Assembly (NCBI RefSeq): GCF_963921235.1
Contig: NC_086108.1
Coordinates: forward strand, 38,504,001 to 38,568,000
DNA from: Mobula hypostoma
Lineage: Eukaryota
DNA length: 64,000 nt
Direction: 5' to 3'
This document shows positions 3,875 to 61,639 of the stretch, piece by piece (position 1 is the stretch's first letter; every line of letters begins with the position of its first letter). The notes beneath the pieces are model-generated. The model saw only the letters and a program-made list of their open reading frames with translations. It was not told the origin of the DNA and searched no databases. A program made the translations under genes and the position numbers.

Positions 3875-3876
3875 AA

Positions 3877-11165: not shown

Positions 11166-13585
11166 ACAAACAGCAAAGAACGACAGACAGTTCTATCTCT
11201 GCTCCAGGGAAGCTCCAAGTCTCAGTTCAGCCAGCAACCTCAGCTGGTTACAAAAACAGCCGGATCCCTACCTAGCTCGGAGTTGCTGGCAGCCATTCAG
11301 CTGGCCCAGGAAACAGCGGAATCCATACCACAAAGACAACTCCGACTACCAACAGCAAGGCTCCATGAAGCGATGGTTCTCCAACACGGCCTAAAGATGA
11401 CAAGTGGCTGCTCTAGCCTTCCACCAGCAGGTTGCTCCAGGGGAACTGATGAGACAAACCAGCATCTCACACTCAACCCCAAGGCTACTTATATTCCAAG
11501 CCCCAAGATATGAATCAGGTGCCTATGCTTAACTCAATCAAATGAGGGACAGCTAGAAGACCCAAAGTCCTAAGTCCACGGACCGGACCGTGAACTGGAA
11601 TGCGGACTTCACGGACCGGACCATGACACCAGTATGTTACCTCAACCTGAAAATAGGACTAAACTTCACTATCATTCAGCCAAGGTGGTGCCAGTGAACC
11701 ATGGCAACATGCTACAGGCTGCTTACAAAACTTCTAAATATACCTCTTCTGAATTGCACTCACTGCAATCTGGAAGCTTGTAATTTCTCTTCAAGCATGT
11801 ATTTTTGATCCACCTTAATGAACTAGTGATTTCGCAATCTTCTAAAGGTCTTGGCAGACTTAACTCTCTAGCATGCAGGTACAGCACCTTGGTAATTGGG
11901 CAGATAAGTAGATGAAGGTGCATTGCCATAGCCAGAAGAGAGAGGGGAGAGGAGGACTCCAAGCCAGGCTTCAAACACTAAACAATGAATGTTCATCCAC
12001 CAAGCATCTTGTTACCAAATGCACAAGACTGAGGATCTAAGGGCAAGATTGCTGTATCAGAAGAAAATGAGGCATTGCTATGTTCCATGTTTCATGGAGA
12101 CACAGCTCTCTCCAAGCACAGAGGATTCAGTAATCAGACCCAAGGGTTTCTCAATATACAAGACAGACTAAACTACTGATTTAAGGAAGACAAAAAGTGG
12201 GGTCTGTGTTTCATGATAAACTCTCTGTGGTGCTCGAATGCAGCACACTTGTCCTTGTTAAACTTTTGTTCCCCCGATCTGAAAAATCTAGTGATTAAGT
12301 GCTGACCGTTCTACTTATCAAGAGAATTCCTGTCCGCGATCCTGACTGCAGTTTATATACTGTCAAAAGCCAATGTTAATAAGGCACCCAAGATATTGAA
12401 TTCTGCCATCACCAAACAAGAAACTGTCCATCCCAAAGCATTTCCAATCATAGTCAGGGACTTCAATCAGGCTTGTTTGAAGAAATCTCTGCCCAATTAG
12501 CATCAGCATAAAACCTGCAGAACCAGGGTTCCTGACACAGTAGATCACTGGTTTGCTATCATTAGGAATGCCTACTTTTCCATGCCCAGACCCACATTTT
12601 GGGAAATCTGATCACTTGACTGTCCTTCTCCTAGATGAATATAGGCAGAGGCTAAAGAGAAAGGCACCAGAAATAAGCACAATGAGGAGGTGGTTGCGGG
12701 AGGCGGAGAAGCAGCGACAGGATTGCTTCGATTCGCTGGAATAGGTCATGTTCAAGCACTCATCAGAAGATCTGAATGAATTTGCCGTGGTTGTCTCTGA
12801 CTTTATTAAAGCAGTTGTGGACAAGTACATCCCCACAAAGTCACTCAGTGTCTTCCCCAGTCAGACGCTCTGGATGAACCATGAGATCCACAATCTACTG
12901 AAGGCCACATCAGTGCATTCAGCATCTGGTAACCAAGTAAGATGCAAGAGGTCCAAGTACCATCTCTGGCAAGCCAGCTCACGTGCAAAGTGGCAACTCC
13001 AGACTAAACTTGAGTCACGGGGGCATGCTCGACAGCTGTGTCAGGGCTTGAATGCCATTACCTCTGACCAAATGAAACCAAATGACATAGGTGACAACAA
13101 GTCTTCAATCCCAGATGAGCACAATGCCTTCCATGCTCACTTTGACCATTGAAACATGGAGGAACCTTTGCAAACTCTTACAGCCCTCAATGACCCTCTC
13201 AGGCCAATGAGAGATCATCCTTCAGGAGGTTAAACCCACAGAAAGCAGCCTGCCCAGATGGGGTACCTGGTCGACTACTAAAGACATGTACTAATCAACT
13301 GGCTGGAGTGTTCACCGATAATTTTAACCTCTCGCTCCAGCAATCTAAGATGCCCACCTGGTTCAAGTAAGCTTCAATTATATCACTGCCAAAGAAGAAA
13401 GTGGTAACCTGCCTCAGTGACTATTGTCCAGTAACACTTACATACACCGTGTTGAAGTGCTTTGAGAGGCTGGTGATGAAAGATATCAACTCCTGCCTGA
13501 GAAGCGATTTGGATCCACTACAAGCAACACACATAAAAGTTGCTGGTGAACGCAGCAGGCCAGGCAGCATCTCTAGGAAGAGGTG

Positions 13586-13622
13586 CAGTCGACGTTTCAG
13601 GCCAAGACCCTTCGTCAGGACT
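13586..13622 (-). ncRNA. Minimal type I hammerhead ribozyme motif in a PLE 3' region
   Basis: Minus strand AGUC-CUGACGA-A-GGG(UCUUGG)CCU-GAA-ACGU-C-GACU: both core boxes, stem I, stem II and palindromic stem III. Confidence 0.8.
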
Positions 13623-16098
13623 AACTGAAGGAAGAGTGAGTAAGGGATTTGAAAGTGGGAGGGGGAGGGGGAGATCCAAAATGATAGGAGAAGACAGGAG
13701 GGGGAGGGATAGAGCCAAGAGCTGGACAGGTGATAGGCAAAAGGGATACGAGAGGATCATGGGACAGGAGGTCCGGGAAGAGAGACAAGGAGGTGGGGGG
13801 GGGGACCCAGTGGATGGGCAAGGGGTATATTCAGAGGGACAGAGACAGAAAAAGGAGAGTGAGAAAGAATGTGTGTATAAAAATAAGTAACAGATGGGGT
13901 ACGAGGGGGAGGTGGGGCATTAGCGGAAGTTAGAGAAGCCGATGTTCATGCCATCAGGTTGGAGGCTACCCAGACGGAATATAAGGTGTTGTTCCTCCAA
14001 CCTGAGTGTGGCTTCATCTTTACAGTAGAGGAGGCCGTGGATAGACATGTCAGAATGGGAATGGGATGTGGAATTAAAATGTGTGGCCACTGGGAGATCC
14101 TGCTTTCTCTGGCGGACAGAGCATAGATGTTCAGCAAAGCGGTCTCCCAGTCTGCGTCGGGTCTCGCCAATATATAAAAGGCCACATCAGGAGCACCGGA
14201 CGCAGTATATCACCCCAGCCGACTCACAGGTGAAGTGTTGCCTCACCTGGAAGGACTGTCTGGGGCCCTGAATGGTGGTAAGGGAGGAAGCGTAAGGGCA
14301 CGTGTAGCACTTGTTCCGCTTACACGGATAAGTGCCAGGAGGGAGATCAGTGGGGAGGGATGGGGGGGACGAATGTACAAGGGAGTTGCGTAGGGAGCAA
14401 TCCCTGCGGAATGCAGGGGGGCGGGGAGGGAAAGATGTGCTTAGTGGTGGGATCCCGTTGGAGGTGGCGGAAGTTACCGAGAATAATATGTTGGACCCGG
14501 AGGCTGGTGGGGTGGTAGGTGAGGACCAGGGGAACCCTATTCCTAGTGGGGTGGCGGGTGGATGGAGTGAGAGCAGATGTACGTGAAATGGAGGAGATGC
14601 GTTTAAGAGCAGAGTTGATAGTGGAGGAAGGGAAGCCCCTTTCTTTAAAAAAGGAAGACATCTCCCTCGTCCTAGAATGAAAAGCCTCATCCTGAGAGAG
14701 CAGAGTTGATGGTAGAGGAAGGGAAGCCTCTTTCTTTAAAAAAGGAAGACATCTCCCTCGTCCTAATAGCAGAGTTGATAGTGGAGGAAGGGAAGCCCCT
14801 TTCTTTAAAAAAGGAAGACATCTCCCTCATCCTAGAATGAAAAGCCTCATCCTGAGAGAGCAGAGTTAATGGTGGAGGAAGGGAAGCCCCTTTCTTTAAA
14901 AAAGGAAGACATCTCCCTCGTTCTATAGCAAAGTTGATAGTGGAGGAAGGGAAGCCCCTTTCTTTAAAAAAGGAAGACATCTCCCTCATCCTATAGCAGA
15001 GTTGATAGTGGAGGAAGGGAAGCCCCTTTAGCAGAGTTGATAGTGGAGGAAGGGAAGCCCCTTTAGCAGAGTTGATAGTGGAGGAAGAGAGCCCCTGCTC
15101 TCACTCCCTTAAACGCATCTCCTTCATTTCACGTACATCTGCTCTCACTCCATCCTCCTGCCACCTCAATAGGAATAGGGTTCCCCTGGTCCTCACCTTC
15201 CACCCCACCAGCCTCCGGGTCCAACATATTATTCTCCGTAACTTCCGCCACCTCCAACGGGATCCCACCACTAAGCACATCTTTCCCTCCCCGCCCCCCT
15301 GCATTCCACAGGGATCGCTCCCTACGCAACTCCCTTGTACATTCGTCCCCCCCATCCCTCCCCACTGATCTCCCTCCTGGCACTTATCCTCGTAAGCAGA
15401 ACAAGTGCTACACGTGCCCTTACACTTCCTCCCTTACCACCATTCAGGGCCCCAAACAGTCCTTCCAGGTGAGGCAACACTTCACCTGTGAGTCGGCTGG
15501 GGTGATATACTGCATCCGGTGCTCCCGATGTGGCCTTTTATATATTGGCGATACCCGACGCAGACTGGGAGACCGCTTTGCTGAACATCTACACTCTGTC
15601 CGCCAGAGAAAGCAGGATCTCCCAGTGGCCACACATTTTAATTCCACATCCCATTCCCATTCTGACATGTCTATCCACGGCCTCCTCTACTGTAAAGATG
15701 AAGCCACACTCAGGTTGAAGGAACAACACCTTGTATTCCGTCTGGGTAGCCTCCAACCTGATGGCATGAACATCGACTTCTCTAACTTCTGCTAATGCCC
15801 CACCTCCCCCTCGTACCCCATCTGTTACTTATTTTTATACACACATTCTTTCTCTCACTCTCCTTTTTCTCCCTCTGTCCCTCTGAATATACCCCTTGCC
15901 CATCCTCTGGGTTCCCCCCCCCCCCCACCTCCTTGTCTTTCTTCCCGGACCTCCTGTCACATGATCCTCTCGTATCCCTTTTGCCTATCACCTGTCCAGC
16001 TCTTGGCTCCATCCCTCCCACTCCTGTCTTCTCCTATCATTTTGGATCTCCCCCTCCCCCTCCAACTTTCAAATCCCTTACTCACTCTTCCTTCAGTT

Positions 16099-16135
16099 AG
16101 TCCTGACGAAGGGTCTCGGCCTGAAACATCGACTG
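16099..16135 (+). ncRNA. Hammerhead motif, degenerate stem III
   Basis: AGUC-CUGACGA-AGGGUCUCGGCCU-GAAACAUC-GACU; the ACGU palindrome is changed to ACAU. Confidence 0.65.
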
Positions 16136-16697
16136 CACCTCTTCCTAGAGATGCTGCCTGGCCTGCTGCGTTCACCAGCAACTTTTATGTGTGTTGCTTG
16201 AACTTCCAGCATCTGCAGAATTCCTGTTGTTTGGATCCACTACAATTTGCCTACCAGTACAATAGCTCCAAAGCTATTTCATTGGCTCTTCACTCAAGCC
16301 TGGAACATCTGGACATCAAAGATACATACATCAGGGTGCTCTTTATCAACTACAGCTCACATTCAACATGATTATCCCCTCAGAACTAATCAATAAGCTT
16401 CAAGATCTTGGCCTCAATACTTCCTCGTGCAACTGGATCCTTGATTTCCTCACTTGCAGACCCCAGTCAGTTTAGATTGGCAACAACATCTCCATTACAA
16501 TCTCCATCAGCACAGATGTACCTAGTCCCTGCTCTACTAACTTTATACTTATGATGGTGAGGCTAAGCACAGCTCCAATACCATATTTAAGTTTTCTGAT
16601 GATGCCACTGTCATTGACTGAATCAACGATGGTGATGAATCAAAGGAGGAGGTTGAAAATCTGGCTGAATAGTGCTACAACAACAACCTCTCACTCA

Positions 16698-16795
16698 AAG
16701 CAACATACACAAAATGCTGGAGGAATTCAGCACGTCAGGCAGCATCCATGGAAATGAACAAACAGTAGACGTTTTGGGCCATTTCTTCAGGACTC
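16698..16795 (-). mobile_element. Short Penelope-like 3' fragment ending at the hammerhead remnant
   Basis: GCAACATACACAAAATGCTGGAGG...GTAGACGTTTTGGGCC...CAGGACT, flanked by an approximate CTCACTYAA duplication inside the Rex LINE. Confidence 0.65.
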
Positions 16796-18310
16796 ACTTA
16801 ATGTCAGCAAAGAGATAATTATTAACTTCAGGAGGAGGAAACCGAAGGTCCATGAACCAGTCCTCAGCAGGGCATCAGCAGTAGAGAGGGTCAGCAACTT
16901 TAAATTCCACAGTGTTATCATTCCAGGGGATCTGTCCCGGGCCAGGCACGTGAGTGCAATTACAAAGAAAGCATGGCAGTGCCTCTACTTCCTTAGAAGT
17001 TTGCAAAGATTTGGCATGACATCTGAAACTTTGACAACTATCTATAGATGTGCGGTGGAGAGTTTATTGACTGGTTGCATCACGGCCTGGTATGGAAACA
17101 CCAATGCCCTTGAATGGAAAATCCTGCAAAACATAGTGGATACAGTCCAGTCCATCACAGGTTAAGCCCTCCCCACCATTGAGCACATCTACATGGAACA
17201 CATTCACTAGCAAAGCAGCATCCAACATCAATGAACCCCACAACCCAGGCCGTGCTCTCTTCTTAATGCTGCCATCAGGAAGAAGGTACAGGAGCCTCAG
17301 GTCTCACACCATCAGGTTCAGAAACAGTTATTACCCCTCAATCGTCAGGCTCTTGAACCAGAGGGGATAACTTCACTCAGCTTCACTCGCTCCATCAGTG
17401 AACTGTTCCCCCAACCTATAGACTCACTTCCACATTCTCTTCTTCTTATGTTCTCAATATTTATTGCTTATTAATTTATTATTATTATTTTATTCTTCTC
17501 TTTCATACTTGCACAGTTTGCACATTGTTTTCTTTTATCCGTCCTGTCAGGTGTGTCTTTCATTGATTTTATTGTGCTTCATGGATTTATTGTGTATGCC
17601 AGCAAGAAAGCAATCTCAAGGTTGTACGTGCTGACATACTGTATATGTACTTTGATAATAAATTTACTTTGAAGTTTGAAACTGTCATTAATTACCAACT
17701 AAGTATTTTCAGTTAAGTAAGCGTTGGGGCCCAATCAGTTTATAAGATTTCTTGGGGGAGTGGGGGGAGGAACGAGAATTTTCCAACAATTTATCAAAAT
17801 ATTGAATACATACCAGCTCATAATGATGTGTTATCTTGTTTTACGTTTGGCAATAAAACAGGAGAAATGTAAAATTCTACATGTAATTTAAAATTTTGGT
17901 TACAATAAAAACAGAACATATGTATATGTATATACCCAAGTTTAAATATAAACCTTTACCGAAAGAAATCTTTACAAAAGTAGTCAAAAGATAGTATTGA
18001 ATTAGTTGAAAGTATCAAACAGAATTTTTTTCAGAGGAAAATAAAATTAAGGGTTAAAATAAGAAGAACCATGTAGTCTAAAGGGAAGAAATATAGAATG
18101 AGTAAAGTCTCTGTTTGAATAATGTTCAGGGAATAGAAGAAATTGTTGGATCTGTGCAGATCTTGTGTGGTTTTGGCTGCTTAAGTCAGCATAAAATCCA
18201 AATATTTTTTAGAATATTTGCACTTAATATTTTTGCTATTACGTAGTCAATTCTATATAAGCTTTATATAATCATAACTAATATTGAACTTAACCTTTCT
18301 CTTACATTAG

Positions 18311-18487
18311 AATGCAGCCAACCCAAACGAATTGAAAATGCAGCACCTAGATTAAGCGCCAGTAATAATCGTTATCCTCATAATTCTTTCGTGCCTTATC
18401 ACTGTGATTCAGGATATGTGGGTATTTTACGATACATGTGTGTGAATGGAGAATGGATCAAGAGCAATCCAGAGCATACTTGCAGTT
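18311..18487 (+). CDS. CFH-like exon 2 (CCP1)
   Basis: TAG acceptor, GTAAGT donor, 177 nt, phase 1-1. ECSQPKRIENAAPRLSASNNRYPHNSFVPYHCDSGYVGILRYMCVNGEWIKSNPEHTCS has four Cys and the Trp, and resembles factor H CCP1 (..CRKGEWVALNPLRKC). Confidence 0.93.
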
Positions 18488-18989
18488 GTAAGTGAGACTG
18501 AGACATAGATATTTATTTGCTTTCCTTACTCTACTTAAAAATAATTTGTTAATACAATATATGATACAAGATTGTGGCCTAAGCTGCATGGATGCAATGT
18601 ATCCTCTGGTGGTTTCCTACTGTTTAAGATAAAACTTGGGAAAAATAAAAAAATCCTGCCCTGTTTCCAAGAACTAACTTTGCTAGTTAACAAGATCATG
18701 GCTAATCTGAATGTAAACTCAACACTGATTCTCATTTATCAAACAATAAGCTCAGAATGTTATGTTAATCTATTTTGTATTTAGCAGTTAACAGGAGAAT
18801 CCTAAAATTCTACATGTAGTTTAATATTTTAGTTACAATAAAAACAAAGCAAAATACTAAATATATACATAAGTCTAAAAATAAATCTTTGCAGAAGTAA
18901 GTTTTTATAAAAACTGTCAGGGGTTAGAAAGAATCAACTAATTGAAAGTGTAAAATAGACATATTTAACAGTAAAATTTTTTATTAAAT

Positions 18990-19910
18990 ACCTATTGACT
19001 TCTGTCCTAAAAGTACTCACAGACTCTGCTTCCACAGCTCTTTATGGAAAATAGTTCCAAAGACTAAAAGAATTTCACTTGAGCTCCATCTTAAAGTGAT
19101 GACCCTTACTTTTAAGAATAACCACCTGTTCTAGATTCTTCTTCAAGGGGAATCATTGTCTCCACATCCACTCCATCAAGACACCTCATGCTCTTATCAT
19201 CCCCTATCATATTCCAAAGCTCCAACAGATACGAACACTAGACTGCACGATCTTCCTCATAAGGCAGTTAACTCATTCCCAGTGCAATAAACCTTCTCCA
19301 AACTTTTTCCAATATACTAACACTCTTCCTGATATAAGAAGACTGATTCTGTACATAGTACTCCAGATCTGGTATCACCAGAGACTTATGCAATTGAAGA
19401 AAATTATCTCCACTTTTGTATTAAATCCTCTTAGCAATAAACCATTAGAACTCTCTCAGTTTTCTTAATTAATTTCTGTACCTGCATACAAGTCTGCTGA
19501 GAATCACATCTACAGTAAGACATACACATCCCTATGCAAGTCAGATTTCTGAAATCTCTCATCATTTAGAAAATTTTCGCTTTCTTGTCAAAATGTAGCA
19601 TTTCACATTTTCTCATATTATACTCCATTTTAAGAATTGTTGCAGATTGTATAACCTCTCTGTAGCTTCATTTTGTCCTCTTCACAACTTACTTCTCCCA
19701 ACTGTGTTTGAAGTCAGCACATTTTTCTTTGGACCTTTCATCTAATTCTTTCATATAAATTATAAAATGCAGAGACTCCAGGAATAAGTCCTGCTGCACA
19801 TACAGTAACTCATTACATCTCACCAACTGGAAGGTGGTTCATTGGTGGCTACTCTGTGCTTCCTCTTAACCACTCAATCTTCTTTCCACAGCTCTGTGTT
19901 ACCTCCTATC
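18990..19910 (-). mobile_element. Old CR1-like LINE remnant
   Basis: Degenerate similarity to the other minus-strand CR1 copies (ACATAGTACTCCAGATCTGGT, CATTTCACATTTT segments). Confidence 0.55.
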
Positions 19911-20942
19911 TCTCTAATTTCCTTTCATACAGCACCTGAATCCTCTGGGATAGAACAGTGATGCTGTAGATGGTGTATCTTCCTCACACATGCAACTGCA
20001 ATCACTCGATAATATGCTCCAGTGTTGTCCAGATGAAGTTTGCACATGCTCCCTATAACTGAGTGGAATTCCTCCAGTTATTTTAATTTCCCACATCCCA
20101 GAGAAGTGTTGGTTGTTGGGTTTCTTGGTGGATGAATAGTTGTTAATACTGTGCAAGGATATAAAGTGAAGCAAAATAAGTAGAAAATATGTTTGACGAG
20201 ATTACCTTGAGGGCCAGCATGAGTACCTTGGCTAAGTAGCATCATTTAATGTCATAAGAACAAACGGAAATTAAAAGCTGTGAAGAGCACCCTGGTTAAT
20301 TTTTCTGGCCATAATATACATCCCCTTTAAAGGACTTTAATTAGTATTGGACAATTGCAATAATAGACCACTGCATGTTCATATTTTGTCATTTTCAATA
20401 TCAACATATTGATTATTTATTTAATAAATAGCTAAGAAAATTAAATGTTTATTTTTTTGATTTAGAAGACCAGGGGGTAATCCTATTGAATACAAGATCC
20501 TTGGTGGGTAGGTGGGGATAATGCTGGCTGCTGCTGTGATGTTTCCACCAGGAGAATCTTGAACAAGGTGACAGAACATTGAACCAAGGTAATTTAAAAC
20601 TGAGGTGCAATCTCTGGAATTCTCTAACCTGGAGGGTTTAAGAGTTAGGGGTAACATAAAGGAGAAGTGATAAATGTTTGAAAAACAGCAAATTGAAAGG
20701 TATGGAAAATTGGCACAGAAGAGGCCTAGAATGGATTAGCCATGAGCTTATTGAACAGGGCAGGTTTGAGGGGCTGGGTGGCCTACTCCTGCTCCTATTA
20801 CCTTATGTTCTTTTGGCACTCATTGCAATATTTAAATATGCATGATGTTAGATAATAAATATCAAATTCTACTGACTATTCTGTACTGATAAAACTGCCA
20901 ATTAATGTTCACTACTATTTCAAACCCAACGTCAAACATTAG

Positions 20943-21048
20943 TAAAGCGTTGTGGAACTCCAAAAGATATTTTACATGGAACATTTAAGCTGACTCAAGG
21001 TGAAGACTTGGTGTTTGGTGCTCGCATTGAATACAAGTGCGATGAAGG
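20943..21048 (+). CDS. CFH-like exon 3 (CCP2, first half)
   Basis: TAG acceptor, GTAAGG donor, 106 nt, phase 1-2. LKRCGTPKDILHGTFKLTQGEDLVFGARIEYKCDEG, split within the Gly codon as in RCA genes. Confidence 0.93.
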
Positions 21049-21119
21049 GTAAGGAGTAAATTTTAACAATCTGATTGTATTTACTTGCCAGGAGAAAGAA
21101 TAGTTACACATGACAACAT

Positions 21120-21505
21120 AACTACTATGAAGGGGATCTCAATAATACTGGTCAAATATTGAAGGGCCTAGGTAGATGGACGTAAGAGGATATTTCCATT
21201 TCTGGGGCAGTTTAGGACCAGAGGGCACAGCCTCAAAATACAAGGGCATCCATTAGGACAGAGGTGAGGAAGAATTTCTTGAGCTAGAGGGTGGTAAACC
21301 ATTGTCAAAGATGGTTGTGGAGTCTAGATCATTTGGTATATTTAAAGCAGAGGTAGGTAGGTTCTTGATGAGGAGGTGGGTCAAAGGTTATGGGGAAAAG
21401 ACAGGAGAATAAGGTTGACTGGGAAATTACCAAATGGCAGAGTAAACTCAATGGGCTGAAGGCCCTAATCCTGCTCCTGTTTTATAGTCTTTTAGACCTA
21501 TGGTC
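21120..21505 (+). mobile_element. CR1-clade LINE 3' end
   Basis: AGGACCAGAGGGCACAGCCTC...AATTTCTT...GAGGGTGGT motif and 3' UTR; similar to 61200-61590. A weaker remnant lies at about 20440-20810. Confidence 0.7.
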
Positions 21506-21543
21506 TCTCATTACTATTTTGATGAACTGGTCAATGAATGTAA

Positions 21544-22148
21544 TGTAACCCTCAGGCTCTCCCAGCTCGCATCCGTCTAGGGGAACCAGCCTGCAGCCCC
21601 GCCAAACTGGGTAATCACATTTCTGTGGATGCTGTGTAATGTACCCCCAGTTACAAACCCACAACACTAGATATCAGATAGTACACCATCTGCAATTAAA
21701 TGATAGACTTTGTGAATCTTGATCTGAATATAGGGTTAGGAATGGAAAAAAAACAAAGCAAGAAAAAGGGCCCGAGTCAAAGTCAAAGTCCCAGCTGGAG
21801 CTCACTCAGTAGGCACTCTTCCACCATCGATCACCTCTGAATGTCACCAACCTTCGGACTCCCACTCAGGGTCCACCCCGTCCGGCAGTCTACCAGATTT
21901 CTCCATTCACGTCTTCTCTCTTCATCTCTCCCTCTCCTTCTTCTGGCAAAATCCCGCAAAAACAACTGCTTCCAGAATCACAAGAACAGCAACAATCTCT
22001 TATTGGCTAGCCACTGAATTCCAAAGTCCCATTATCTCTAGTCATAACCCAAACACTGCTGTGACAGAGAAACCATTACCTTAACAGTGGAACATTGCAT
22101 AGAAGCCATTACATTAGCCTTAGCAGTGAAACCTTACAGCGTGTTACA
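21544..22148. mobile_element. Probable solo LTR (about 605 bp)
   Basis: Inverted termini TGTAAC...GTTACA, non-coding interior; flanks share TAA(T), but the TSD is ambiguous. Confidence 0.55.
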
Positions 22149-22691
22149 TAATATTGTCTAATCTATTGTACATAGAACATAGAATATTACAGCATAGAAC
22201 AGGCCCTTTGGTACACGATGTTGTGTCGACTTTTTAATCTACTCTAAAATCATTCTAACCCTTCCTTCTTCCAACATTGTCCTCCATTTTTCTGTCATCC
22301 ATGTAGCTATATAAAAGTTTCTTAAATGTCCCTAATATATCTGGCTCTACCACCAGCCATGGCAGAGCTTTCCACACACCCTCCATTCTCTGTGAGAACA
22401 GCTTACCTCTGACACCTCCTTATACTTTCTTCCAACCACTGTCAAATTCTGCTCCTTTCTATCAGACTTTCCTGCCCTGGGAAAAAAGTCTCTTGCTATC
22501 AACTCTATCTATGCCTCTTTTTACCTCTATCAAGTCACCATCAGGTCATTTTGCTCCAAAGAGTGAATCCAAGCTCTCTCAACCTACCTTCATAAGACAT
22601 TCCCTCTGGCCCCTCTGGTCCAAATCTCCTCTGAACCCTCTCTAAAGTTTCCACATCCTTCGTATAATAAGATGACCACAATATTCCAAGA

Positions 22692-22863
22692 AGAGGTACA
22701 GTCGACGTTTCGGGCCGAGACCCTTCGTCAGGACTGACGAAGGGTCTCGGCCCAAATCATCGACTGTACCTCTTCCTAGAGATGCTGCCTGGCCTGCTGC
22801 GTTCACCAGCAACTTTGATGTGTGTTGCTTGAATTTCCAGCATCTGCAGAATTCCTCATGTTT
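22692..22863. mobile_element. 172-bp Penelope-derived hairpin insertion with divergent hammerhead motifs
   Basis: 14-bp TSD ACAATATTCCAAGA at 22678-22691 and 22864-22877; inverted arms meet at CGTCAG-GA-CTGACG. Confidence 0.9.
22699..22736 (-). ncRNA. Intact minimal type I hammerhead ribozyme motif
   Basis: Minus strand CAGUC-CUGACGA-A-GGG(UCUCGG)CCC-GAA-ACGU-C-GACUG: 5-bp stem I, 3-bp stem II, palindromic ACGU stem III, GUC cleavage triplet. Confidence 0.88.
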
Positions 22864-25263: not shown

Positions 25264-25284
25264 AAGTAGTAAACTCAACCAGCT

Positions 25285-27089: not shown

Positions 27090-27775
27090 TTAGATTTTAG
27101 ATTAGATTTAGATTATGAGGACACTCAGTCCTCATTTATTATCATTTAGAAATTCATTCATTAAAAAATGATACAATGTTCCTCCAGAATGATATCACAA
27201 GAAACATATGACAAACCAAGACTAAAACTAACAAAACCACATAATTAAAACATATAGTTACAACAGTGCAAAGCAATACCATAATTTAATAAAGAGCAGA
27301 CTATGGGCACGGTAAAAAAAAGTCTCAAAGTCCCGATAGCCTCATCACCTCACGCAGACGGTAGAAGGGAGAAACTCTCCCTGTCATGAACCTCCAAGCG
27401 CCGCAAACTTGCCGATGCAGCACCATTGGAAGCAACCAACTGCAGCGGACTCTGAGTCCATCTGAAAACTTCGAGCCTCCAACCAGCCCTTCGATATTGA
27501 GCACTGAGTGCCATCCTCTGCCGAGCGCTTCAACCCGGCCGCCGAGCAACAAGCAAAGCCGAGGACTTGGGGCCTTCCCCTCCGGAGATTTTGGACCACA
27601 CAGTAGCAGCAGCAGCAAAGCAGGCATTTCAGAAGTTTCACCAGATATTCCTCCGTGCTCTCACGTCCCTCTCCATCAAATCAGGATTGGGCACAACACC
27701 CTACTTGACAAATAACAGACATCACCACCGGTGTGGCCGCTGTGAGCTGCGTCGTGTCGCCATCTTCTCCTCTCC
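27090..27775 (-). mobile_element. Short non-coding retroposon (non-autonomous, Rex-like ends)
   Basis: Minus-strand 5' end GAAGATGGCGAC; AATAAA plus (AATCT)n-type tail at 27090-27140; no RT coding. Confidence 0.6.
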
Positions 27776-29467
27776 TTGATGACTGAACTGCCAGTGTCAA
27801 TGTTTGGTCTTGATGTTCCTGCTGAGTTATAACTTTTAGTTGAAGCTACAACTTGGAATTGAACATAGAGTATGTATTTGAAAACCATTGGCCCTATTAT
27901 GCTAGTTCTACCAGCACTTTCTCCTGGAATGTTTTTCAAAATTACATGAACAAAAAAGTGAATTTTTTTCAAAATTACATAAAGCTGGGAGATATATAAG
28001 AATGAAATCGAGTCATTGAGGCCTTTTGTTTATTCTGTATGTTTAAAGCTGAGAGATCATTACTCCAATGCTGCCAAATCTAGTGAATTCTTTCTTGTTT
28101 CTTTAAAGTCCAACAAGACTTTCTTCAAATGCTTGTCAAACACATTGCCAACCACAGTTCTTCCATGGGCAATGGGAATTAACTTTCCAAAGTCATTAAT
28201 CATGGCACCAAAGGCTATTCTGTATCATCTGGTGATCACCTATGTACTTGATCATTCAACATTACAATTTACATGACAGGAAAGGGAGTCCACTCTCTCA
28301 GTGTTCAGCTAGTAATGATCACTTAAGTTGAAGCCTACTATTCTGGAGGCTTCACGCTACTATGCAGCATCCTGGTTTGATAAGTCTGTTTCATCCATCA
28401 ATGCAATGAAATGAAAGTCCACTAAAGGTTCATTACTCAACTTCCGAAGTTACATACACTTGCCAAGCACCAACAACTACAATTTCTTTCCTCCCAGAGA
28501 TGCTGCTCAACCCGCTGAATTCCTCCAACAGATTGTCTGTACCTCCAAGACAATGTCTGAATACACGAAGTTGCAATCTTTCCCAGCTTTCTCCCTTTCC
28601 TACCTTACAATGGTTATAAATATAACGGTTGCATAACAAACAATGATCAGTCCAATTCATCTTCTGTATATGGGGAATAATATACCTTAATTTCTTTGAA
28701 GTCACTTTAAGGCACACAAGCCAGAAGTGTTCTTTTGCTCAGTACAGTTGAGTATAGAAAGTAAAAGTGCTAATGCATGTAAAAATCAATGAGCTAGAAA
28801 GCTAGTCAATGATTTGTGAATGTAAATTCAATAGTAAAAGTCTTGAACCTGCTCACTTGAAGTTGCAGACTTGTCCTTTCCAACTGCACTCAATTATAGT
28901 TCTATCTTGCAAAGGAATTAAATCACTGACCCTGTGTCAGTTTACTCCTGGTGCAGGATCTATGAGCCCATTGACCTCAAAGGAAATTGGTGAGAAAAGG
29001 TTAAGATAAGATATTAGCCAAGTGGATGAATTTCTATACAAGAAAGTTCCTTAGACTAAAAAGATGGATAACAAATTTCATTCAATTAATCTCACATTCT
29101 TAATGCTGAATTGATATGAAAATGACTACTTTCAAGCTCAGAGAAGAATTAATTGCTGGTTTATTTAATGGAGAAAGAAGAATTGATTTCAAAATCCTCA
29201 GAAAACCAGATACATTGGTGGAAATTTTAGTTTTTACACGTCACTGCTTATTTACATCTTAACAAGATCATTTCTATGGAAAATGATAGTGGGGATTTGT
29301 AGTTGAATATGGCACCTGTAGCCAACCAGTCCATTACAATACACTTTGCAACTCGAGTAAAGTTGAATAATTGCCCTTTCTGTGCTTCTCTGTTGATATC
29401 TTATAGTGACATCCATCCACATTTTAAGAATGAAATATACTCACTATTTATATCTGTCCTTTTAAAG

Positions 29468-29544
29468 ATATCGGCTGGTGGGTACAAGAAATTACATGAA
29501 TTGTGAACTATCTGGCTGGACTGGTCTTGTCCCATATTGTGAAG
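29468..29544 (+). CDS. CFH-like exon 4 (CCP2, second half)
   Basis: AAG acceptor, GTAATG donor, 77 nt, phase 2-1. YRLVGTRNYMNCELSGWTGLVPYCE. Confidence 0.93.
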
Positions 29545-29939
29545 GTAATGAAAAGATAAATATTAAATATGTCACCACTAATTTGTAATGGATTATTACT
29601 GTGAGATAAAACACTGAATAAAATATAGCAATCTCAAAACACAGAGCATGAAAATTCAGTCCTTTATGGAGTGGAATGTGACTAACATAATTCCTTTGTG
29701 AAATTACACCACTCCAGAAATGTGGGTATTTTCAGTAGTACATTCCTTAAGAATGGATGCATAACTTCCATGTCATTTATAAACATTCAGGTCTACCTTT
29801 CCATGTAGACTAACAATCAGTTTGCATTTTCAGATTCCTCTTTGGATCTTGATGAGCAACGGAAAAGGAAACAGTCCACACTCTTGCGATATTTTGCATT
29901 TGATCTGAAAATAATAGTACCATTACATGTGTTTTACAG

Positions 29940-30137
29940 TAAGGACCTGTCCGCCTGTGAATAACCCTGAAAATGGAAGGATTGCAGAGCCTAGCTTTTT
30001 GGACAATGCTCATGATTATCCTTTTGGCTCCTTCCTGAGATTTGAGTGCAATTCTCCTAATATGGAAATTCATGGGGCTAGGCAAATTTATTGTTTAGAA
30101 AATGGAACATGGAGTAATCCAGTACCCAAATGCAAAG
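29940..30137 (+). CDS. CFH-like exon 5 (CCP3)
   Basis: CAG acceptor, GTAAGA donor, 198 nt. VRTCPPVNNPENGRIAEPSFLDNAHDYPFGSFLRFECNSPNMEIHGARQIYCLENGTWSNPVPKCK resembles factor H CCP3 (CLPVTAPENGKI...YHFGQAVRFVCNS). Confidence 0.95.
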
Positions 30138-32016
30138 GTAAGATTCAGTGTTCACCTCTTGACTAAATTTCACAAAAGCTTCTTATTTGACATTCACGAA
30201 AAGGAACCAAACCTCAGAAATGTAAGCAAGATGAACTTATACTGCTATTCAAGCTTGCTCTACCATTCCATGAGATCATAAATGATCTTCTATCATGCCC
30301 ACTTTTCCTTTCTACACATCTTGATTCTTAACAGAGTAAAACATTTTGATGATGCGCTGCCACCTGAAACTGGAATCTCATTTATCTAAGTCCTAAATGC
30401 TGATCTTTTCATCCTCAACCTCTCAATAATCTAGCAAGAGAAAACAAGCTTGAATCATCTCCCCAAAAAATCCATTCATAATAATGTATTCATATTTTTC
30501 CAAACCCCAGCAAGAGTAGATGAAATTTTCCTTACAAAAAATCCTTCATCCCAGAAATCAATCTATCCAATCAAAACTGCAACACATCCAAATCTTCCAT
30601 AAATGTAGAAACCAAAGTTAGTGTTGGACGCTGATGAATCAGTGTGAGCCTTCCTGTAGAAAAAAATCAAATTTAGTACAGATCAGTTTTCAAATCATGA
30701 TCTGTCCACATCAGCATATTACTGGCCATTTCTTATGGGAAAATATCAGAAATCCTGCTTGGAAATATTTCTCTCCACACTCATCATTCACGTTTAAGAC
30801 TTCCACACAAGCACAGAAGTTCCAGATTTACTGGCCACATCAAAGTGCAGTAAGAATTTACAAGGCTGATTCTAGAGATGTCAAGTATGAAGAGAAATTG
30901 ATTAGACTAACCCTTTATTTTCTACAATTTTGAGAAATGAAGGGATATCTCCTTGAAGATTTAAGATTTTTTACTGGACTTGACAGGCTATGTAAACGGA
31001 GAGATTCCCCTGGCTGAGGAAACTAAAACCACAGTCTCAGAATAAGGGAATGTCAGTTTGCACTGAGATGAGGAGGAATCTCTCTGCTTAGAAGATGGAA
31101 AATCCTTGGAATTTTCTATCTTAGAAGACTGTGAAGGTTCAGTTGTTGTGTTCATTCAAAACCAAGATCAATAGATTTCTCCATTATATAGAAAAACAAA
31201 AGATCTAACATTTAGAATTGGGATGAATTTGAACAAATGTTGACAATGGTAGATTTGTAAAAGCGAAGTTAAGACTGAGGTAGATTATCAGCAAATGCGG
31301 GTAGTTTGCCACTAGCAAGAAGTTCTCTGTGATTCTATTTTCTTCCTGTACACACAGAGTTGAGGACCTTAAACATTTCCATGCTTAAATTATTCCCTCT
31401 CATGCAGCAGCAAATCTTGGTAACTTATCCAACAATTTTCATATAGAGATAGCCCAATCAATGAAATGCAATTTCTCTTTCCCAGATATATCATAATGCC
31501 TATTAAACATAAAATTGGCATTTCATGGAAGTTTCCAAATCATTTGGCAGCAGACATTTGTTTGTTGTAACAAAATAAAGTTTTAACTGGGTTAGGAAGG
31601 ATAAGGTCAAATTTTCTTAATTGCTTGGAAAAGTTTTGTACAAGGAAATTGTAACTCAACGTGAAGACATAATAGAACCATAATATTATTCATTCCAAAC
31701 AAGAGAGACAATGTTTTAACAATACCACCTTTGCTATTTAAACTACACGCATTTTGACCTTCTCTGTTGAATAATCTTATGAAGTATTCTTGTTCAAAGT
31801 GCAATCATTCTGAAAAGTCACGTGGATCTGCTCAGTATACTTTTCATACATATCAAAATCCAATTCACACCAGATTTTCGTAACCAGGTCAGTGCAAGAA
31901 CAAGTGAGCAATGGCAAAACTTTGTCAGCTTAATACATTTAATAGTCTAGACATATGATGGGTTGTATGAAGAACAGAATTGTATTTCAATTTAAAAATC
32001 TATATGCATACTGTAC

Positions 32017-32762
32017 GTGTTGCCCCATTATAGGAAGGCTGTCAAGGCTTTGGAGAGGGTGCAGAGCTTTACCAGGATGTTGTGTGCTATAACAAGATGT
32101 TGGACAAACTTGGGTTGTTTTCTGTGGAGGCTGTGGGGATATCTGATAGAGGTTTATAAGATTATGAGAGGCATGAGTAGAATAGACAGGGAGTATCTTT
32201 TTCCCAGGGTTGAAATGTCTAATACGTGAGGGTACGCATTTAAGGTGAGGGGGGTAATTTTAAAGGAGATGTGTAGGGCAAGTTTTTTTACACAGAGAGT
32301 ATTGGATGCCTGGAATGCATTGCCTGGGGCAGAGGAAGAGGCAGAAACATTAGGGACTGTTAAGAGTCATTTAGATAGGCAGGTGAATGAGAGGAAAGTG
32401 GAAGGATATGGACCTTAGACATGAGGAAATCTGCAGATGCTGGAAATTCAAGCAACACACACAAAAAATGCCGGTGAGCGCAGCAGGCCAGGAAACATCT
32501 ATAGGAAGAGGTACAGTCGACGTTTCGGGCTGGGACTCTTCGTCAGGACGAATGGTCCCGGCCCGAAACGTCGACTGTACCTCTTCTCATAGATGCTGTC
32601 TGGCCTGCTGCGTTCACCAGCATTTTTTGGATATGGTCCTTAAGTAGGCAGAAGAGATTTGCTTAGTTGGTCATTTGGTCACCAATTTATTTGTTTTGGC
32701 ACAATATTGTGGGCCGAAGCACCTGTTCTTGTGCTGTACTGTATGTGCTATGTGCTCTGTGC
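32017..32762 (+). mobile_element. CR1 LINE 3' portion
   Basis: PHYRK..ALERVQ...LIEVYKIMRG...FFTQRV motifs and (TGTGCTA)n-like tail. Confidence 0.8.
32418..32628. mobile_element. 211-bp Penelope-derived hairpin insertion folding back at the hammerhead core
   Basis: TSD GGATATGGWCCTTA at 32404-32417 and 32629-32642 (one mismatch); arms meet at TTCGTC-AG-GACGAA; minus-strand hammerhead motif at 32514-32549. Confidence 0.88.
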
Positions 32763-33019
32763 TAAGGTTAGTATTTATGGTAGAACTATTTGGGGTTGAA
32801 ATGGGACTTTGCTTTGTGCATTGGAAATGTGAAAGCACAGACCTGAAGGAGTAATATCCTGCAGCTGATCTTCAGCAAGGTTAGAAGCACAATGAAACGT
32901 AAAAGTTGCTGCTCTATTTCATACAATACCTGCCTGAACAACCTTTGGCTATCATGGATATGTAAATAAGGAACCTAAATTTTCAGGACTCTTACAGAAA
33001 TTGGATCCTTGTCCCACTA

Positions 33020-33360: not shown

Positions 33361-33904
33361 CAGTTGAGCTTTTATTTTAGGTTGGACTTGGAGGCTGACT
33401 TCAGTCTCAATTTTTCAACAGTATCTTTGGCTTTTACAGCAGTTGCCAAGAAGAATGATTGTTTTTATGACTATAACACACTTTCTGTGAGGGCGATGGT
33501 ACTGTGGTGAATCTACAACTCTTTCTAAGAGTAACTGCTAGCTTGCATTTGACCCTTTTCCATCACAGTGTTTTATATTTCATACTTCCTCTCTGCACTG
33601 TATTCCCTTCAGTCCATCAAGTCCATGACAGTGCTCAGGCAGATCTCATTCTCATTTCCCTTACACATGCTCATTAATACCAGCCTTGTTTCACTTCTAC
33701 TCATCTATAAAATGGTCATTTGTAGTGGCCAATTAACCTAACAACCATCACCTGTTTAGAAGCATGGAAAACAGTAGCAGGCCATTCAGCCCAACTGGCC
33801 TGCTGCACCATACAACATAATTAGGTTGATTATCTACTTGAGCTTCCTGTTCTTGCTTTCTTCTGTATTCATTGATCTATTTAGCATTAAGAAATATATC
33901 AATA

Positions 33905-34700
33905 GTTCAATTTAATATCAGAGAATGTATACAATATACAACCTGAAATTCTTACTCTCCACGGACATCCTCAAAACAGAAGAAAAAAAACCCCGAAGAA
34001 TGAATGACAGAAAAAAGATGTAAGAACTCCAAAGCCCCCTGTCCTCCCCACCACATACAAGCAGCAGCAAGCAGCATCAACTGCCCCCCCACCCCGTTAT
34101 TCCAGCATAAAGCATCAGCATTTCCACCACCCAGCCTCCATGGTTCTACAGTCATCAAAAACTAATTATTCACTCCAAGATTTCAACATCCCACAGGCTT
34201 TCTCTCTCTCACTAACAAGGGAGAGGCAGATATCGTTCCTTCCACAGCAACAGAGGAGACAACAGTCGCTGTTTTGTTGTTAGTCAGTCTGAAGCGTTGC
34301 TTTTTATTTCAAGTTCTCCAACTCGAGAATCAGCAAGTCAATTACTGCGTGCAGAGCCCTCTGACAGCCACTCTCGCTGTCTTCTATGTTACCGCTCCCG
34401 CTACATTTCAGTTTATGACTCCAGTGAGGATTCGTATCCACAGAGCTGCATGGGCCCCGAAGTCGCCTGACATCAGGCCGAACCTGGACATATTGAAAAG
34501 TGGCCGATTGGCGAGCTCCAAGCACAGGAATACGCTGTCGTGCAGAACCGCTGTTTTTGAGTGTGACCGTAGATCAAAGATCCCGATAAGATCCCGACCA
34601 CCCTGAAAAGGAAAATAGAGACATTAGAACAGGAAGAATTTAACTGCATCGCTGATGAGCTGGGAGAAGTTGGCCATTGGCATCATCTTTAGCTCTGCCC
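33905..34700 (-). mobile_element. Short non-coding retroposon (Rex-like 3' end) nested in an old CR1
   Basis: 3' end GTTCAATTTAATATCAGAGAATGTATACA..ACAACCTGAAATTC, shared with about 47480-47620 and, inverted, about 35060-35245. Flanking DNA 33760-36370 is eroded minus-strand CR1. Confidence 0.6.
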
Positions 34701-36715
34701 TCACATGATATCTACCTGATCCTTAAAGATACATGATGAATTGTTGAGCACTAAACTCTGTCAAAGATCTCCACAGGTTTACCATCCTCTAGGTGAAAAA
34801 AATTCTCCTGACCTCAGTTCTAAATAGCTTTTGTCATATCCTGAGGCATGAACCTAGGATATGGACTCTCAAGCTGTAAGGTACTTTCTCCCTGTCTTTC
34901 TTGTCCTGTCAGAATTTGACAAGTTTATGTTAGATTCTTCCAATTCTTCTACCATCTAAAGAACACAGGCCTGACTAACTCACTCTCTCTCATTGTCAGT
35001 CCTGCCATCCCAGGAGTCAGCGTAACAAATCTGTGTTCTACCATCCCACCCAATCCCCAAGGAATGAGCATTCTTCCACGGAGCAGGAGCTTGTGTGAAG
35101 AGAGGTGGAAGGGGGGATTTGGGGTATCAATGTTTCTATCATTCATTCAATTGGGTCTCTTGTTTCATGGATATCTGTGAAGAGTATGAATTTCAGGTTG
35201 TATACCGCATACATTCTCTGATATTGAATGAACGTTTGAGACTTTGAAAAACTATACAGATGGGTCTCACCAATGCCCTCTGCAGCTGTAGCAAGGCAGT
35301 CTTGTAGCTACACTCAAATTCTCTGAAAATGTAGGCAAGCATACTGTACTGCCTGTCTACATTCTCAGTCCTGATGGAAGGTCTCAAGCTAAAACACCAA
35401 CTATCCTTTTGCCCTCCCCAGATACTTCCTAACCATTGGGTTCCTTTTCTTGCTTCAGATTCCACTATCTGCATTCTCTGGGAAATCTCTTGATTTCTTA
35501 ACTAGTTGCTGCACCTCAACATGTGGTCACAGTTGTTGGAATGCAAAGACACCAAGAGATCATCATATCTGCCATTTCCCCTGTGTTATTACCTTTCAGA
35601 TCATTTGCCTTTCTCTTCTGAGAGTGACAACTCCGTACTTGTTCACATTTAACTGCATCTGCCCACTATTTCAACTTTTCTAAATCACATTCAAGATAAC
35701 TTGCACTCTCCTCACATCTCAACCTTTCCTCAACACCACATCACCTGCAGAACTGGGAGATCATGCACTTAGTTCCATCATCCAAAGTATTAACATCTAT
35801 TGTGAGTAGCATAGCATCAGTGTTTGGCACTTGCAAATTGACCCATTTTTCTTGTCAATCAGTTAATTGTCAATGAATTCAATTTAATGCATCAATTCAT
35901 GTGTTTTAGTAACTTCTTTTGGGAAAACGTGTCAAATGCTTTTTGAAAATCCAAACACACCACATCTTCTTGCTTTACCTTATCCATTTCGCTAATTCCA
36001 TCCTTAAAATAACACAACAGATTGATTAATTCCAGAAATCCATGGTGATTTTGTCCAATTCAATTAAAATCTTTCTAATTGTTCTTTTAATTGTGTGTGT
36101 TTTTTTAACAGATTGTAGTATTTTCCACTATTTGCAGAGCCACTTGATTTTGAAATCTGGAACAAAGGATATAAGGTTCTTAGGATATGCAACTTCCATT
36201 AATTATTTAACACAATTTCTTTGGTTATAATTATTAGCTTCATTTTCTCCCTGCCACTAAATCCTTTGTTCCGTGACATACTGTACCTGGGAGAGTACTT
36301 ACCTTCTAGGTGAAGACAGAACTAAAGTACATGTTTAACTGTTCTGCCATTTCCTTACTTTCCCTGTTTCTTATTGTTTGAGACCAATAGGTCTTTTTGC
36401 TGACTTTGTGAGGAAATTCGCAAACTTTACTTTGCCCTTTCCTCCTGCCATTGCCTCACTTTTTCACTAACAACTCTCCATCCCATTGTGTTCCATGCAA
36501 AAATGAAACCCAAATTGTGGGCAAGTGAACATTGGAATAATGAGAAATGCTCATCCAAAAAAACAAGAGTAAAGATTAAATCAGTCTTGCACCTCACAGT
36601 TGGTCACGTGTTTTCCGGTTTGTCACTGAATATGCCAAAAAACAGTATGTGATCAAATTTTAGTTCTTTGCCTTTTTTGTGGATAGATTGATCAGAGATT
36701 GTTATAATGTAACAA

Positions 36716-37032
36716 AGGGGATACTCCTCCCCCTTCCCTTCCTTCCACGGCCTTCTGTCCTCTCCTATCAGATTCCCCCTTCTACAGATCTTTATCTCTT
36801 TCACCAATCAACCTCCTAGTTCTTTACTTCACCCCTCATGTTCCCTCCTCCCAGTTGCACCTATCACCTACTACCTTGTTTTTCTACTTCCCCTCTCCCC
36901 ATCTTCTTACTCTGACCCCATCTTTTTTCTCCAGTTCTGATGAATGGTCTTGGCCTGAAACGTTGACAGTTTACTCTTTTCCATAGATACTGACTGGCTG
37001 GCTGAGTTCCTCCAGCATGTTATGTGTGTTGT
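36716..37032 (+). mobile_element. Penelope-like 3' fragment with degenerate hammerhead (36932-36969)
   Basis: CAGTTCTGATGAATGGTCTTGGCCTGAAACGTTGACAG followed by ...TCCTCCAGCAT..TGTGTGTTG; flanked by a TGTTATAATGTAA duplication. Confidence 0.75.
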
Positions 37033-37256
37033 TATAATGTAAACCTTTTTCAACTTTACACGATTCATATTGTTATTGCAAATCCATTAAATTTTCGGAA
37101 TCGAAGAGTATGATATGATTAAAATTGATACATTAATCACTGACATGTCCATTCCCTCCTTTAACATACAATATAGTTATTACTTTGGTTATAGTATTTT
37201 CAAGAAATTGCAATGAAAGCCAGTACAAAATATTTTTAATACTTTTGAATTTTTAG

Positions 37257-37427: not shown

Positions 37428-37773
37428 GTAAGTAGATTAGTTTATATAATTGTGTGTTTATTTTGATTAATTTATTCGTCAGAAGACATCATTTCTTGGA
37501 CTATAGACTATAAGGCACTTGGCCCTGAATTGTACAAAGGTTGAAAGAAAATGTAATTTTTATTCTGCACCTGGATACAGTACTGATCATAGTCCTTCAC
37601 CATCCTGTCCTCAGTCCCACAGAGCCTTATGATGCAAATTAAACAAAGTGGTATCCTTACATTTAATGCCAATATTGCCTTAACAAAGACAGCAAGTTAT
37701 GGCCTTTAGCAGAAATTGCTTAACTTCTGTTTTCAGTTGTTCCAATAGTGAAATAGACCATGTAGAAGGTAAT

Positions 37774-39170
37774 CACGAGGAATTCTGCAGATGCTGGAAA
37801 TTCAAGCAAAACACATCAAAGTTGCTGGTGAACGCAGCAGGACAGGCAGCATCTCTAGGAAGAGGTACAGTCGACATTTCAGGCCGAGACCCTTCGTCAG
37901 GACTAACTGAAGGAAGAGCTAGTAAGAGATTTGAATGGGGGAGGGGGAGATCCAAAATGATAGGAGAAGACAGGAGGGGGAGGGATGGAGCCAAGGGCTG
38001 GACAGGTGATTGGCAAAAGGGATATGAGAGGATCATGGGACAGGAGGCCCAGAGAGAAGGAAAAGGGGGAGGGGGGGAAACCCAGAGGATGGGCAAGGGG
38101 TATAGTCAGAGGGACGGAGGGAGAAAAAGGAGAGTGAGAGAAAGAATGTGTGTATATAAATAAATAACAGATGGGGTACGAGGGGGAGGTGGGGCATTAG
38201 CAGAAGTTAGAGAAGTCAATGTTTATGCCATCAGACGGAATATAAGGTGTTGTTCCTCCAACCTGAGTGTGGCTTCATTCTGACATGTCTATCCACAGCC
38301 TCCTCTACTGTAACCTTGTCCATTTGCCCCCCCCATCCCTCCCCACTGATCTCCCTCCTGGCACTTATCCTCGTAAGCAGAACAAGTGCTAAATATGCCC
38401 TTACACTTCCTCCCTTACCACCATTCCGGGCCCCAGACAGTCCTTCCAGGTGAGGCGACACTTCACCTGTGAGTCAGCTGGGGTGATGTACCGCGTCCGG
38501 TGCTCCCGATGTGGCCTTCTATATATTGGCGAGACCTGACGCAGACTGGGAGATCGTTTTGCTGAACACCTACGCTCTGTCCGCCAGAGAAAGCAGGATC
38601 TCCCAGTGGCCACACATTTTAATTCCACATCCCATTCCCATTCTGACATGTCTATCCACGGCCTCCTCTACTGTAAAGATGAAGCCACACTCAGGTTGGA
38701 GGAACAACACCTTATATTCCATCTGGGTAGCCTCCCACCTGATGGCATGAACGTTGACTTCTCTAACTTCTGCAAATGCCCCACCTCCCCCTCATACCCC
38801 ATCCGTTATTTATTTATATACATACATTCTTTCTCTCACTCTCCTTTTTCTCCCTCTGTCCCTTTGACTATACCCCTTGCCCATCCTCCGGGTTCCCCCC
38901 CCCCGCCTTTTCCTTCTCCCTGGGCCTCCTGTCCCATGATCCTCTCATATCCCTTTTGCCAATCACCTGTCCAGCTCTTGGCTCCATCCCTCCCCCTCCT
39001 GTCTTCTCCTATCATTTTTGATCTCCCTCTCCCCCTCCCACTTTCAATTCTCTTACTAGCTCTTCCTTCAGTTGGTCCTGATGAAGGGTCTTGGCCTGAA
39101 ACATCCACTGTACCTCTTCCTAGAGATGCTGCTGGCCTGCTGCGTTCACCAGCAACTTTGATGTGTGTTG
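37774..39170. mobile_element. Penelope-like palindromic insertion (about 1.4 kb)
   Basis: 15-bp TSD CATGTAGAAGGTAAT at 37759-37773 and 39171-39185. Minus arm about 37774-38278; plus arm about 38313-39170 with GIY-YIG remnant. Hammerhead motifs at 37868-37904 (-) and 39074-39110 (+). Confidence 0.92.
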
Positions 39171-39477
39171 CATGTAGAAGGTAATTTTTTCTTGGGATCT
39201 GGTTCTTAGACTATAATTGAATTGCAACACAGACTGGGTGGCAAAATAATTATAGGTAGGTCAGAGAAGAGTATGGCTTTGCTTGTCTCTCTTATCTATC
39301 TGAACCATCCATAGACACCACCTGCTAACATACACTTGGTTTGCTAGTGGCAAGTGGCAAATGACACCACTGCTGACGTGGGTAACACCAAGAGCTGGGG
39401 CCAAAACATTCCCTGTCAATGTCATGGCAGAGAGCCCAATATTGGAGTACTTCCATCACTTCCATGGATCTGAGTGA

Positions 39478-61590: not shown

Positions 61591-61639
61591 AAATCTAATC
61601 TGGCAGGAGCGAAGGGGGAGGTGGTAGAAATCAGGCTGG

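Follow-up and report, generated by a model that had tools for sequence, protein, structure and literature searches.

Introduction

A typical Penelope copy carries an inverted pLTR, an optional tail of 31 bp and a target site duplication (TSD) of 9-10 bp, and palindromes are found at the head-to-head junctions, for which Arkhipova et al. (2013) proposed self-priming (PMC3846280). Craig et al. (2021) describe the same structure for all EN+ clades of Penelope-like elements (PLEs), and name the mechanism that generates the inverted ends as an open question (PMC8557442); inverted pLTRs are also listed in a curation guide (PMC8969392). Biochemical information comes from the Poseidon element PAc of Anolis carolinensis, whose protein, a predicted dimer, cleaves and extends both strands in vitro and starts reverse transcription (RT) at two sites that bound the tail (Frangieh et al., 2024, PMC11167929). 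The passages drawn on from a bioRxiv paper on retrozymes and from PMC12602865 hold nothing further on inversion.

Here, a 64-kb stretch of DNA, referred to as the window, was analysed for the anatomy of a PLE family whose copies include four young head-to-head insertions.

Results

Four head-to-head insertions lie within target site duplications

A preliminary description of this DNA had reported four head-to-head insertions within TSDs, spread over a 16-fold size range. All four are present, each enclosed by direct repeats (ins1, 16 bp; ins2, 14 bp; ins3, 14 bp with one mismatch; ins4, 15 bp). The insertions measure 172 (ins2), 211 (ins3), 1397 (ins4) and 2706 bp (ins1), a 15.7-fold spread. 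Since new PLE insertions have a published median of 128 bp (PMC9977147), this range can be ascribed to ordinary truncation. The features are as follows, with element positions ('ref') counted along the reverse complement of 13521-14700.

13508-13523: ins1, left TSD, 16 bp (16/16); the last 3 nt match the element too
13524-14698, minus strand: ins1, tail-less arm, 5'-truncated, with linker, Zn-finger-like motif, GIY-YIG endonuclease, 3' UTR and hammerhead
14699-15094, minus strand: ins1, centre, seven partial units in tandem, each restarting at ref 93-95
15095-16229, plus strand: ins1, tail-bearing arm, a 13-nt patch and then ref 94 to the tail; GIY-YIG ORF remnant at 15079-15795, hammerhead at 16099-16134
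16230-16245: ins1, right TSD
22678-22691: ins2, left TSD, 14 bp (14/14)
22692-22735, minus strand: ins2, tail-less arm, short, hammerhead only
22734-22863, plus strand: ins2, tail-bearing arm, 2-nt overlap at the turn
22864-22877: ins2, right TSD
32404-32417: ins3, left TSD, 14 bp, 1 mismatch
32418-32549, minus strand: ins3, tail-bearing arm
32547-32628, plus strand: ins3, tail-less arm, 3-nt overlap at the turn
32629-32642: ins3, right TSD
37759-37773: ins4, left TSD, 15 bp (15/15)
37774-38278, minus strand: ins4, tail-bearing arm, stops at ref 684
38276-38313, plus strand: ins4, 38-nt patch, ref 644-681, abuts the stop of the tail-bearing arm
38314-39170, plus strand: ins4, tail-less arm, begins at ref 319
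39171-39185: ins4, right TSD

The TSDs score 16, 14, 11 and 15, that of ins3, with its one mismatch, being the weakest. When the insertions and the tandem arrays were excluded, none of 1000 random boxes scored 11 or more (the best reached 10), and when both were left in, 4 of 300 unfiltered boxes did so. A paralogue of the host LINE, at about 53600-53650, moreover has the ins1 target as a single, collinear stretch. At most outer junctions 1-4 nt fit both the target and the element, which means that the true staggers may be up to a few bases below the TSD lengths. Together with older copies, whose duplications measure 9, 9 and 14 bp, this leaves the apparent uniformity of TSD length, which the preliminary description had traced to the endonuclease stagger, a loose one. 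An ATT common to the four targets was not found, one of the four having it on the tail-side strand, and no direct pLTR tandem around a full ORF occurs among the PLE copies of the window.

Exactly one arm of each insertion (4/4) carries an extra 32-36 nt, here called the tail; this long-end arm is the left one in two insertions and the right one in two. The pairing of a complete 3' end with a 3'-clipped inverted arm is thereby borne out in all four cases, but a common clip site is not: the shorter arm ends at one site only in ins1 and ins4, and lies ∼ 11 nt further in for ins3 and ∼ 55 nt further in for ins2.

The element encodes a GIY-YIG endonuclease and a minimal hammerhead motif

The right arm of ins1 encodes the remnant of a GIY-YIG domain (Pfam E-value 4e-4, just under the cut-off), and the endonuclease is C-terminal and carries the CCHH motif, as in EN+ PLEs. 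A search against longer proteins gave 13 matches, 11 of them named from rays; the best, Mobula hypostoma protein P0001, is 91% identical and extends upstream into the YIDD motif of RT, and protein P0012 carries PF00078. The RT core itself is missing from the truncated copies in the window, none of which extends that far. In both the left arm of ins1 and P0001 the endonuclease is preceded by a C-x4-C-x2-C linker. Such a CX2-5CxxC linker is reported for Neptune and Nematis and not for Penelope/Poseidon (PMC8557442), and on this linker we infer the family, which is that of a Mobula-like ray, to be a Neptune-type PLE.

The minimal hammerhead pattern matches the window four times and 100 shuffled sequences not once. 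The earlier assignment of the family as Penelope-like, with GIY-YIG endonuclease and minimal hammerhead, holds. The motif, a predicted ribozyme, lies ∼ 100 nt from the long end of the element and comprises a CUGANGA core, a bulged base before stem II, GAAA, and palindromic positions that replace helix III; its core is intact in six of the eight young arms. A search of Rfam returned no hammerhead match at E ≤ 1.

Directly before hammerhead stem I, at 16060-16102, there is a long pyrimidine tract ending in AG that resembles a splice acceptor, and the same tract and AG are seen in older copies at about 36915-36935 and 54520-54545. In the Penelope of Drosophila virilis an intron ends at the position just before hammerhead stem I (PMC4209133).

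Older units are mostly single

A profile built from eight element ends was scanned over the 64-kb window and gave 18 matches, 16 of them at E ≤ 1e-3; the reversed window gave none. These resolve into 11 units, namely five head-to-head pairs and six single ends, all six of the latter belonging to older subfamilies. The four insertions initially listed are thus real, but a fifth, decayed pair and the six single ends had been missed. The older units include the following.

8440-8616: head-to-head pair, decayed, older subfamily, no recognisable TSD
16699-16796, minus strand: single tail-less copy, starts at the 5' edge of the hammerhead
36713-37028, plus strand: single tail-less copy, perfect 14-bp TSD (36699-36712 and 37029-37042)
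54390-55611, minus strand: single tail-bearing copy, about 74% identical, 9-bp duplication (54381/55612)

The copy at 16699 has a 9-bp duplication with one mismatch, whose score is not above chance, but the host LINE resumes at that point; at 8440-8616, 33279 and 35366 the candidate TSDs are indistinguishable from chance. The single copies carry the same two ends as the young insertions, tail-less at 16699 and 37028 and tail-bearing at 54390. Inversion is therefore not obligatory in this family, six of the 11 units in the window being single. That integration is 'routinely' inverted, as had been claimed, is true of the young subfamily (4/4 units) and untrue of the older units (1/7) in the 64-kb window.

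Pattern scans of metagenome contigs, viral contigs and prokaryote genomes revealed no further copies; a looser pattern hit 120 loci in the metagenome contigs, of which 0/120 aligned to the element end.

In three of the four insertions each arm holds sequence that its partner lacks

The arms of one insertion overlap over 40-1084 aligned bases, unlike the products of L1 twin priming, as had been noted from the outset. An alignment of the four long arms has 468 gap-free columns. In 17 of these the two arms of an insertion go together (1L with 1R against 4L with 4R), and two are discordant, both in CpG contexts; 35 are singletons and one is three-state. Arm-to-arm identity is 97.0% and 94.3% in the two long insertions, and 92.4-93.1% between insertions. 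These data support the assignment of both arms of an insertion to the same subfamily, and speak against the possibility, raised in the preliminary description, that they come from different ones. The case for ins3 is weaker: its arms are 87.8% alike (72/82), near their identity with other insertions, and nonetheless have one diagnostic stretch in common.

In ins1, ins2 and ins4 the unique centre (ref 1-93, 1079-1082 and 319-683, respectively) is held by the tail-less arm and the tail is confined to the other, although the central stretch of ins2 comes to only 2-4 nt. Neither arm can thus be a full copy of the other. Because each arm has sequence missing from its partner, snap-back of one target-primed cDNA, one of two routes originally put forward, is excluded for these three insertions, and the other route, a second priming event, is supported. 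In ins3 the tail-less arm is wholly contained in the tail-bearing arm, with a 3-nt hairpin at the turn.

Turn points and central patches

In ins2 and ins3, the two short insertions, the turn falls on the hammerhead's 5' edge (ref 1079-1085), away from the cut site and within a short self-complementary stretch. The same edge marks the end of the single copy at 16796 and the restart (16099) of two contig joints, and these recurring stops point to an RNA end or an RT stop there. The hairpin of the tail region is no more stable than shuffled sequence in the five terminal segments that were folded (z from -0.6 to 0.1).

The tail-less arms of the two long insertions return to the element no more than 3 nt from the stop of the tail-bearing arm. 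The tail-bearing arm of ins4 stops at ref 684 and the patch starts at ref 681, while that of ins1 stops at ref 94 and all seven units of the tail-less arm restart at ref 93-95. Under uniform jumping the chance of both landings falling within 3 nt is roughly 5e-5, for a pattern spotted post hoc at two loci. Units u1 and u3 of ins1 have one derived base in common, and such shared variants indicate that part of the array is a later DNA-level duplication. A telomerase-like origin for all seven units was rejected on these grounds, the variants leaving at least two independent landings.

It is conceivable, if rather doubtful, that two cDNAs made in one complex swap: once the tail-less cDNA had run off, its 3' end would be placed on the RNA exactly where the tail-bearing partner had stalled. 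The patch of ins4 would then record one such re-entry and ins1 at least two, possibly in repeated fixed-register cycles, which would resemble realignment by telomerase, the sister enzyme. The ins4 patch could alternatively have been routed through second-strand synthesis. With two loci recognised after the fact, the swap is offered as a lead; if true, it would provide a genomic signature that decides how PLE inverted repeats form.

Public contigs and surrounding repeats

Public contigs from three organisms (A, B and C; four runs) were mapped to positions 13200-33000 of the window. Across the ray lineage the family is very abundant: summed contig depth, which is not a copy number, reaches about 1e6 over the arms, compared with about 20 in unique flanks. 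Organisms A and B carry it in high repetition, and C less so. Among 15 of 18,601 contig joints, four are other head-to-head turns, two of which restart at 16099, and such joints may be real copies or library chimeras. In organism C, two contigs cease to match at the TSD edges of ins1 (13523) and ins2 (22677), leaving 66 and 85 unplaced letters. Because the flank of ins1 is itself a LINE, this is no more than a hint of empty sites.

Contigs that join position 16233 to 16701/16707 number 9-16 per run for A and B, and two for C. These joints connect a tail end to a tail-less end in opposite orientation, as tail-to-tail neighbours, and could reflect fold-back units in tandem or an insertion beside an earlier copy. 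Other joints connect PLE ends with LINE 3' ends at 17680 and 25263. One LINE family (13075-13523, 16246-16990 and 53204-54289) contains or adjoins ins1, the 16699 copy and the 54390 copy. The 686-bp repeat at 27093-27778, with a short tandem pentamer end, is deep in A and B and cleanly skipped by a contig of C; it is a younger insertion of another family.

An inverted repeat at 60749-63171 (76%) was considered as a member of the PLE family and rejected, as it consists of two opposed LINE 3' parts of another family, which we take to be CR1-like; an old PLE fragment lies between them at 61658-61828. The window also contains an LTR retrotransposon remnant on the minus strand (1-4161), in which the frames of the RT, RNase H and integrase domains are broken and a repeat occupies 3-113/4051-4161; tandem arrays with units of 18, 37 and 62-67 nt (10214-11168); and an inverted pair, 72% identical, of another short repeat (33899-34062 and 35089-35239).

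Discussion

A proposed model for integration

The anatomy of the insertions, their TSDs, the common subfamily of their arms and the sequence unique to each arm are best explained, with a probability of about 0.65, by two cDNAs primed at two target nicks and joined head-to-head, the insertions being truncated, non-autonomous copies of a Neptune-type PLE. The RT-endonuclease complex would nick both target strands ∼ 14 nt apart, a spacing taken from the TSDs, and each target 3' end, aided by 1-4 nt of pairing, would prime its own minus-strand cDNA on the element RNA. One cDNA would begin at the outer start and so include the tail; the other would begin at an inner start, usually 32-36 nt inside and sometimes further, and lack it. 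The two would grow toward each other until their 3' ends were joined through 1-3 nt of microhomology, and fill-in would leave a head-to-head palindrome within a TSD. In the short units both cDNAs would terminate on reaching the 5' border of the hammerhead motif, and a single nick with a retained cDNA would give a single copy, tail present or absent. That dual nicking with extension and the use of two RT starts, each shown in vitro for a Poseidon element, coincide in one event in vivo, and the way in which the ends are joined, are the steps that we infer. The 'clipped' end is probably the second RT start demonstrated in vitro (PMC11167929).

Two separately primed cDNAs cover all four insertions and both kinds of single copy. 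Against this model, the young insertions number only four, and one of them, ins3, is equally compatible with snap-back; in both ins2 and ins3 the tail-less end lies off the common inner site; and the in vitro work concerns a different clade, with priming that needed no target homology (PMC11167929). The literature searched, weighted towards open access, contains no two-cDNA joining model for PLEs and no description of this ray family.

A different route, which we consider unlikely, would use an antisense template for self-priming, or else a palindromic intermediate formed beforehand, with later endonuclease trimming that deprives one arm of its tail. Junction palindromes have been taken as self-priming on an antisense template (PMC3846280) and the tail has been attributed to endonuclease resolution (PMC8557442); trimming of the template arm would likewise yield arm-unique sequence, and the turns of ins2 and ins3 do fall in a self-complementary stretch. 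However, the single copies have the same two ends and no partner arm, two RT starts on sense RNA account for the tail in vitro (PMC11167929), and the junctions of ins1 and ins4 are multi-step jumps rather than palindromic loops.

It is very unlikely that one target-primed cDNA snapped back and served as its own template, with the copy cut short at the second nick. A snapped-back cDNA copies only its own content, so the longer outer end has to lie on whichever arm owns the centre. This is an exact match to ins3, but in ins1, ins2 and ins4 the loop-owning arm lacks the tail present on the other. As a general rule snap-back is refuted, fitting one of four insertions, and it may hold for a minority.

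Even less probable is that the short hairpins are a MITE-like non-autonomous family spreading as a fixed palindromic unit. Some turns are carried by single junction contigs at a depth of 127-634, against about 8-13 for unique flanks, and two of these occur in two organisms, as multi-copy fixed centres would give; but a preferred stop at the hammerhead edge, or chimeras, would produce recurrent joints as well. A MITE is a unit of fixed length with conserved terminal inverted repeats and a common centre, whereas here the four centres and lengths all differ, the ends are unequal, the side of the long-end arm varies and no terminal motif is common beyond the PLE ends. The 'MITE-like' label therefore describes shape only, and the retro origin that had been proposed for the palindromes holds. 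Finally, although long inverted repeats trouble assemblers (PMC8557442) and, with contigs only, no read was seen to span a whole insertion, an assembly artefact or the chance head-to-head meeting of two independent insertions is scarcely credible, because the arms are 3-12% divergent and their ends are not alike, a single TSD encloses both, they have common subfamily states, and contigs of organisms A and B reach 26 nt into the right arm of ins3, short of the 31-nt bridging rule.

Comparison with known systems

The proposed model is close to L1 twin priming, in which a second nick primes a second cDNA and the two are joined by microhomology inside the TSD. It differs in that the ray arms overlap almost wholly, both start at the 3' end of the element and there is no poly(A), whereas an L1-type inversion has non-overlapping arms and a poly(A) tail.

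The hammerhead has the same core layout as the minimal motifs of metazoan PLEs (Cervera and de la Peña, 2014, PMC4209133); its copies are oriented away from one another, which makes the tandem dimer fold unavailable within these units. Poseidon PAc is like the ray family in having two ends that bound the tail shortly downstream of the hammerhead, and 5' ends off the cut site, but Poseidon lacks the CX2-5CxxC linker present here, and the account of PAc drawn on here offers no explanation for inverted arms (PMC11167929).

The closest likeness is to the published EN+ PLE units, in which a 5'-truncated copy likewise lies inverted and head-to-head at the 5' end within one TSD, with the same one-end tail of 30-40 nt, a junction palindrome and a terminal-repeat hammerhead (PMC3846280, PMC8557442). 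An inverted pLTR and a tail within a TSD being already typical (PMC3846280, PMC8557442), the initial framing of this architecture as unusual is not supported: it is ordinary for the class. What is added here is the pattern of arm ownership and the re-entry at the partner's stop, as material for the question of how PLE inverted ends originate (PMC8557442). Two features scored across thousands of copies, the ownership of the centre and the start of the patch relative to where the partner stops, could discriminate dual priming from self-priming. In comparison with the published units, the ray copies are without a direct pLTR tandem or a full ORF, their targets are not microsatellites, and their apparent TSDs of 14-16 bp exceed the 8-10 bp of Adineta (PMC3846280, PMC8557442).
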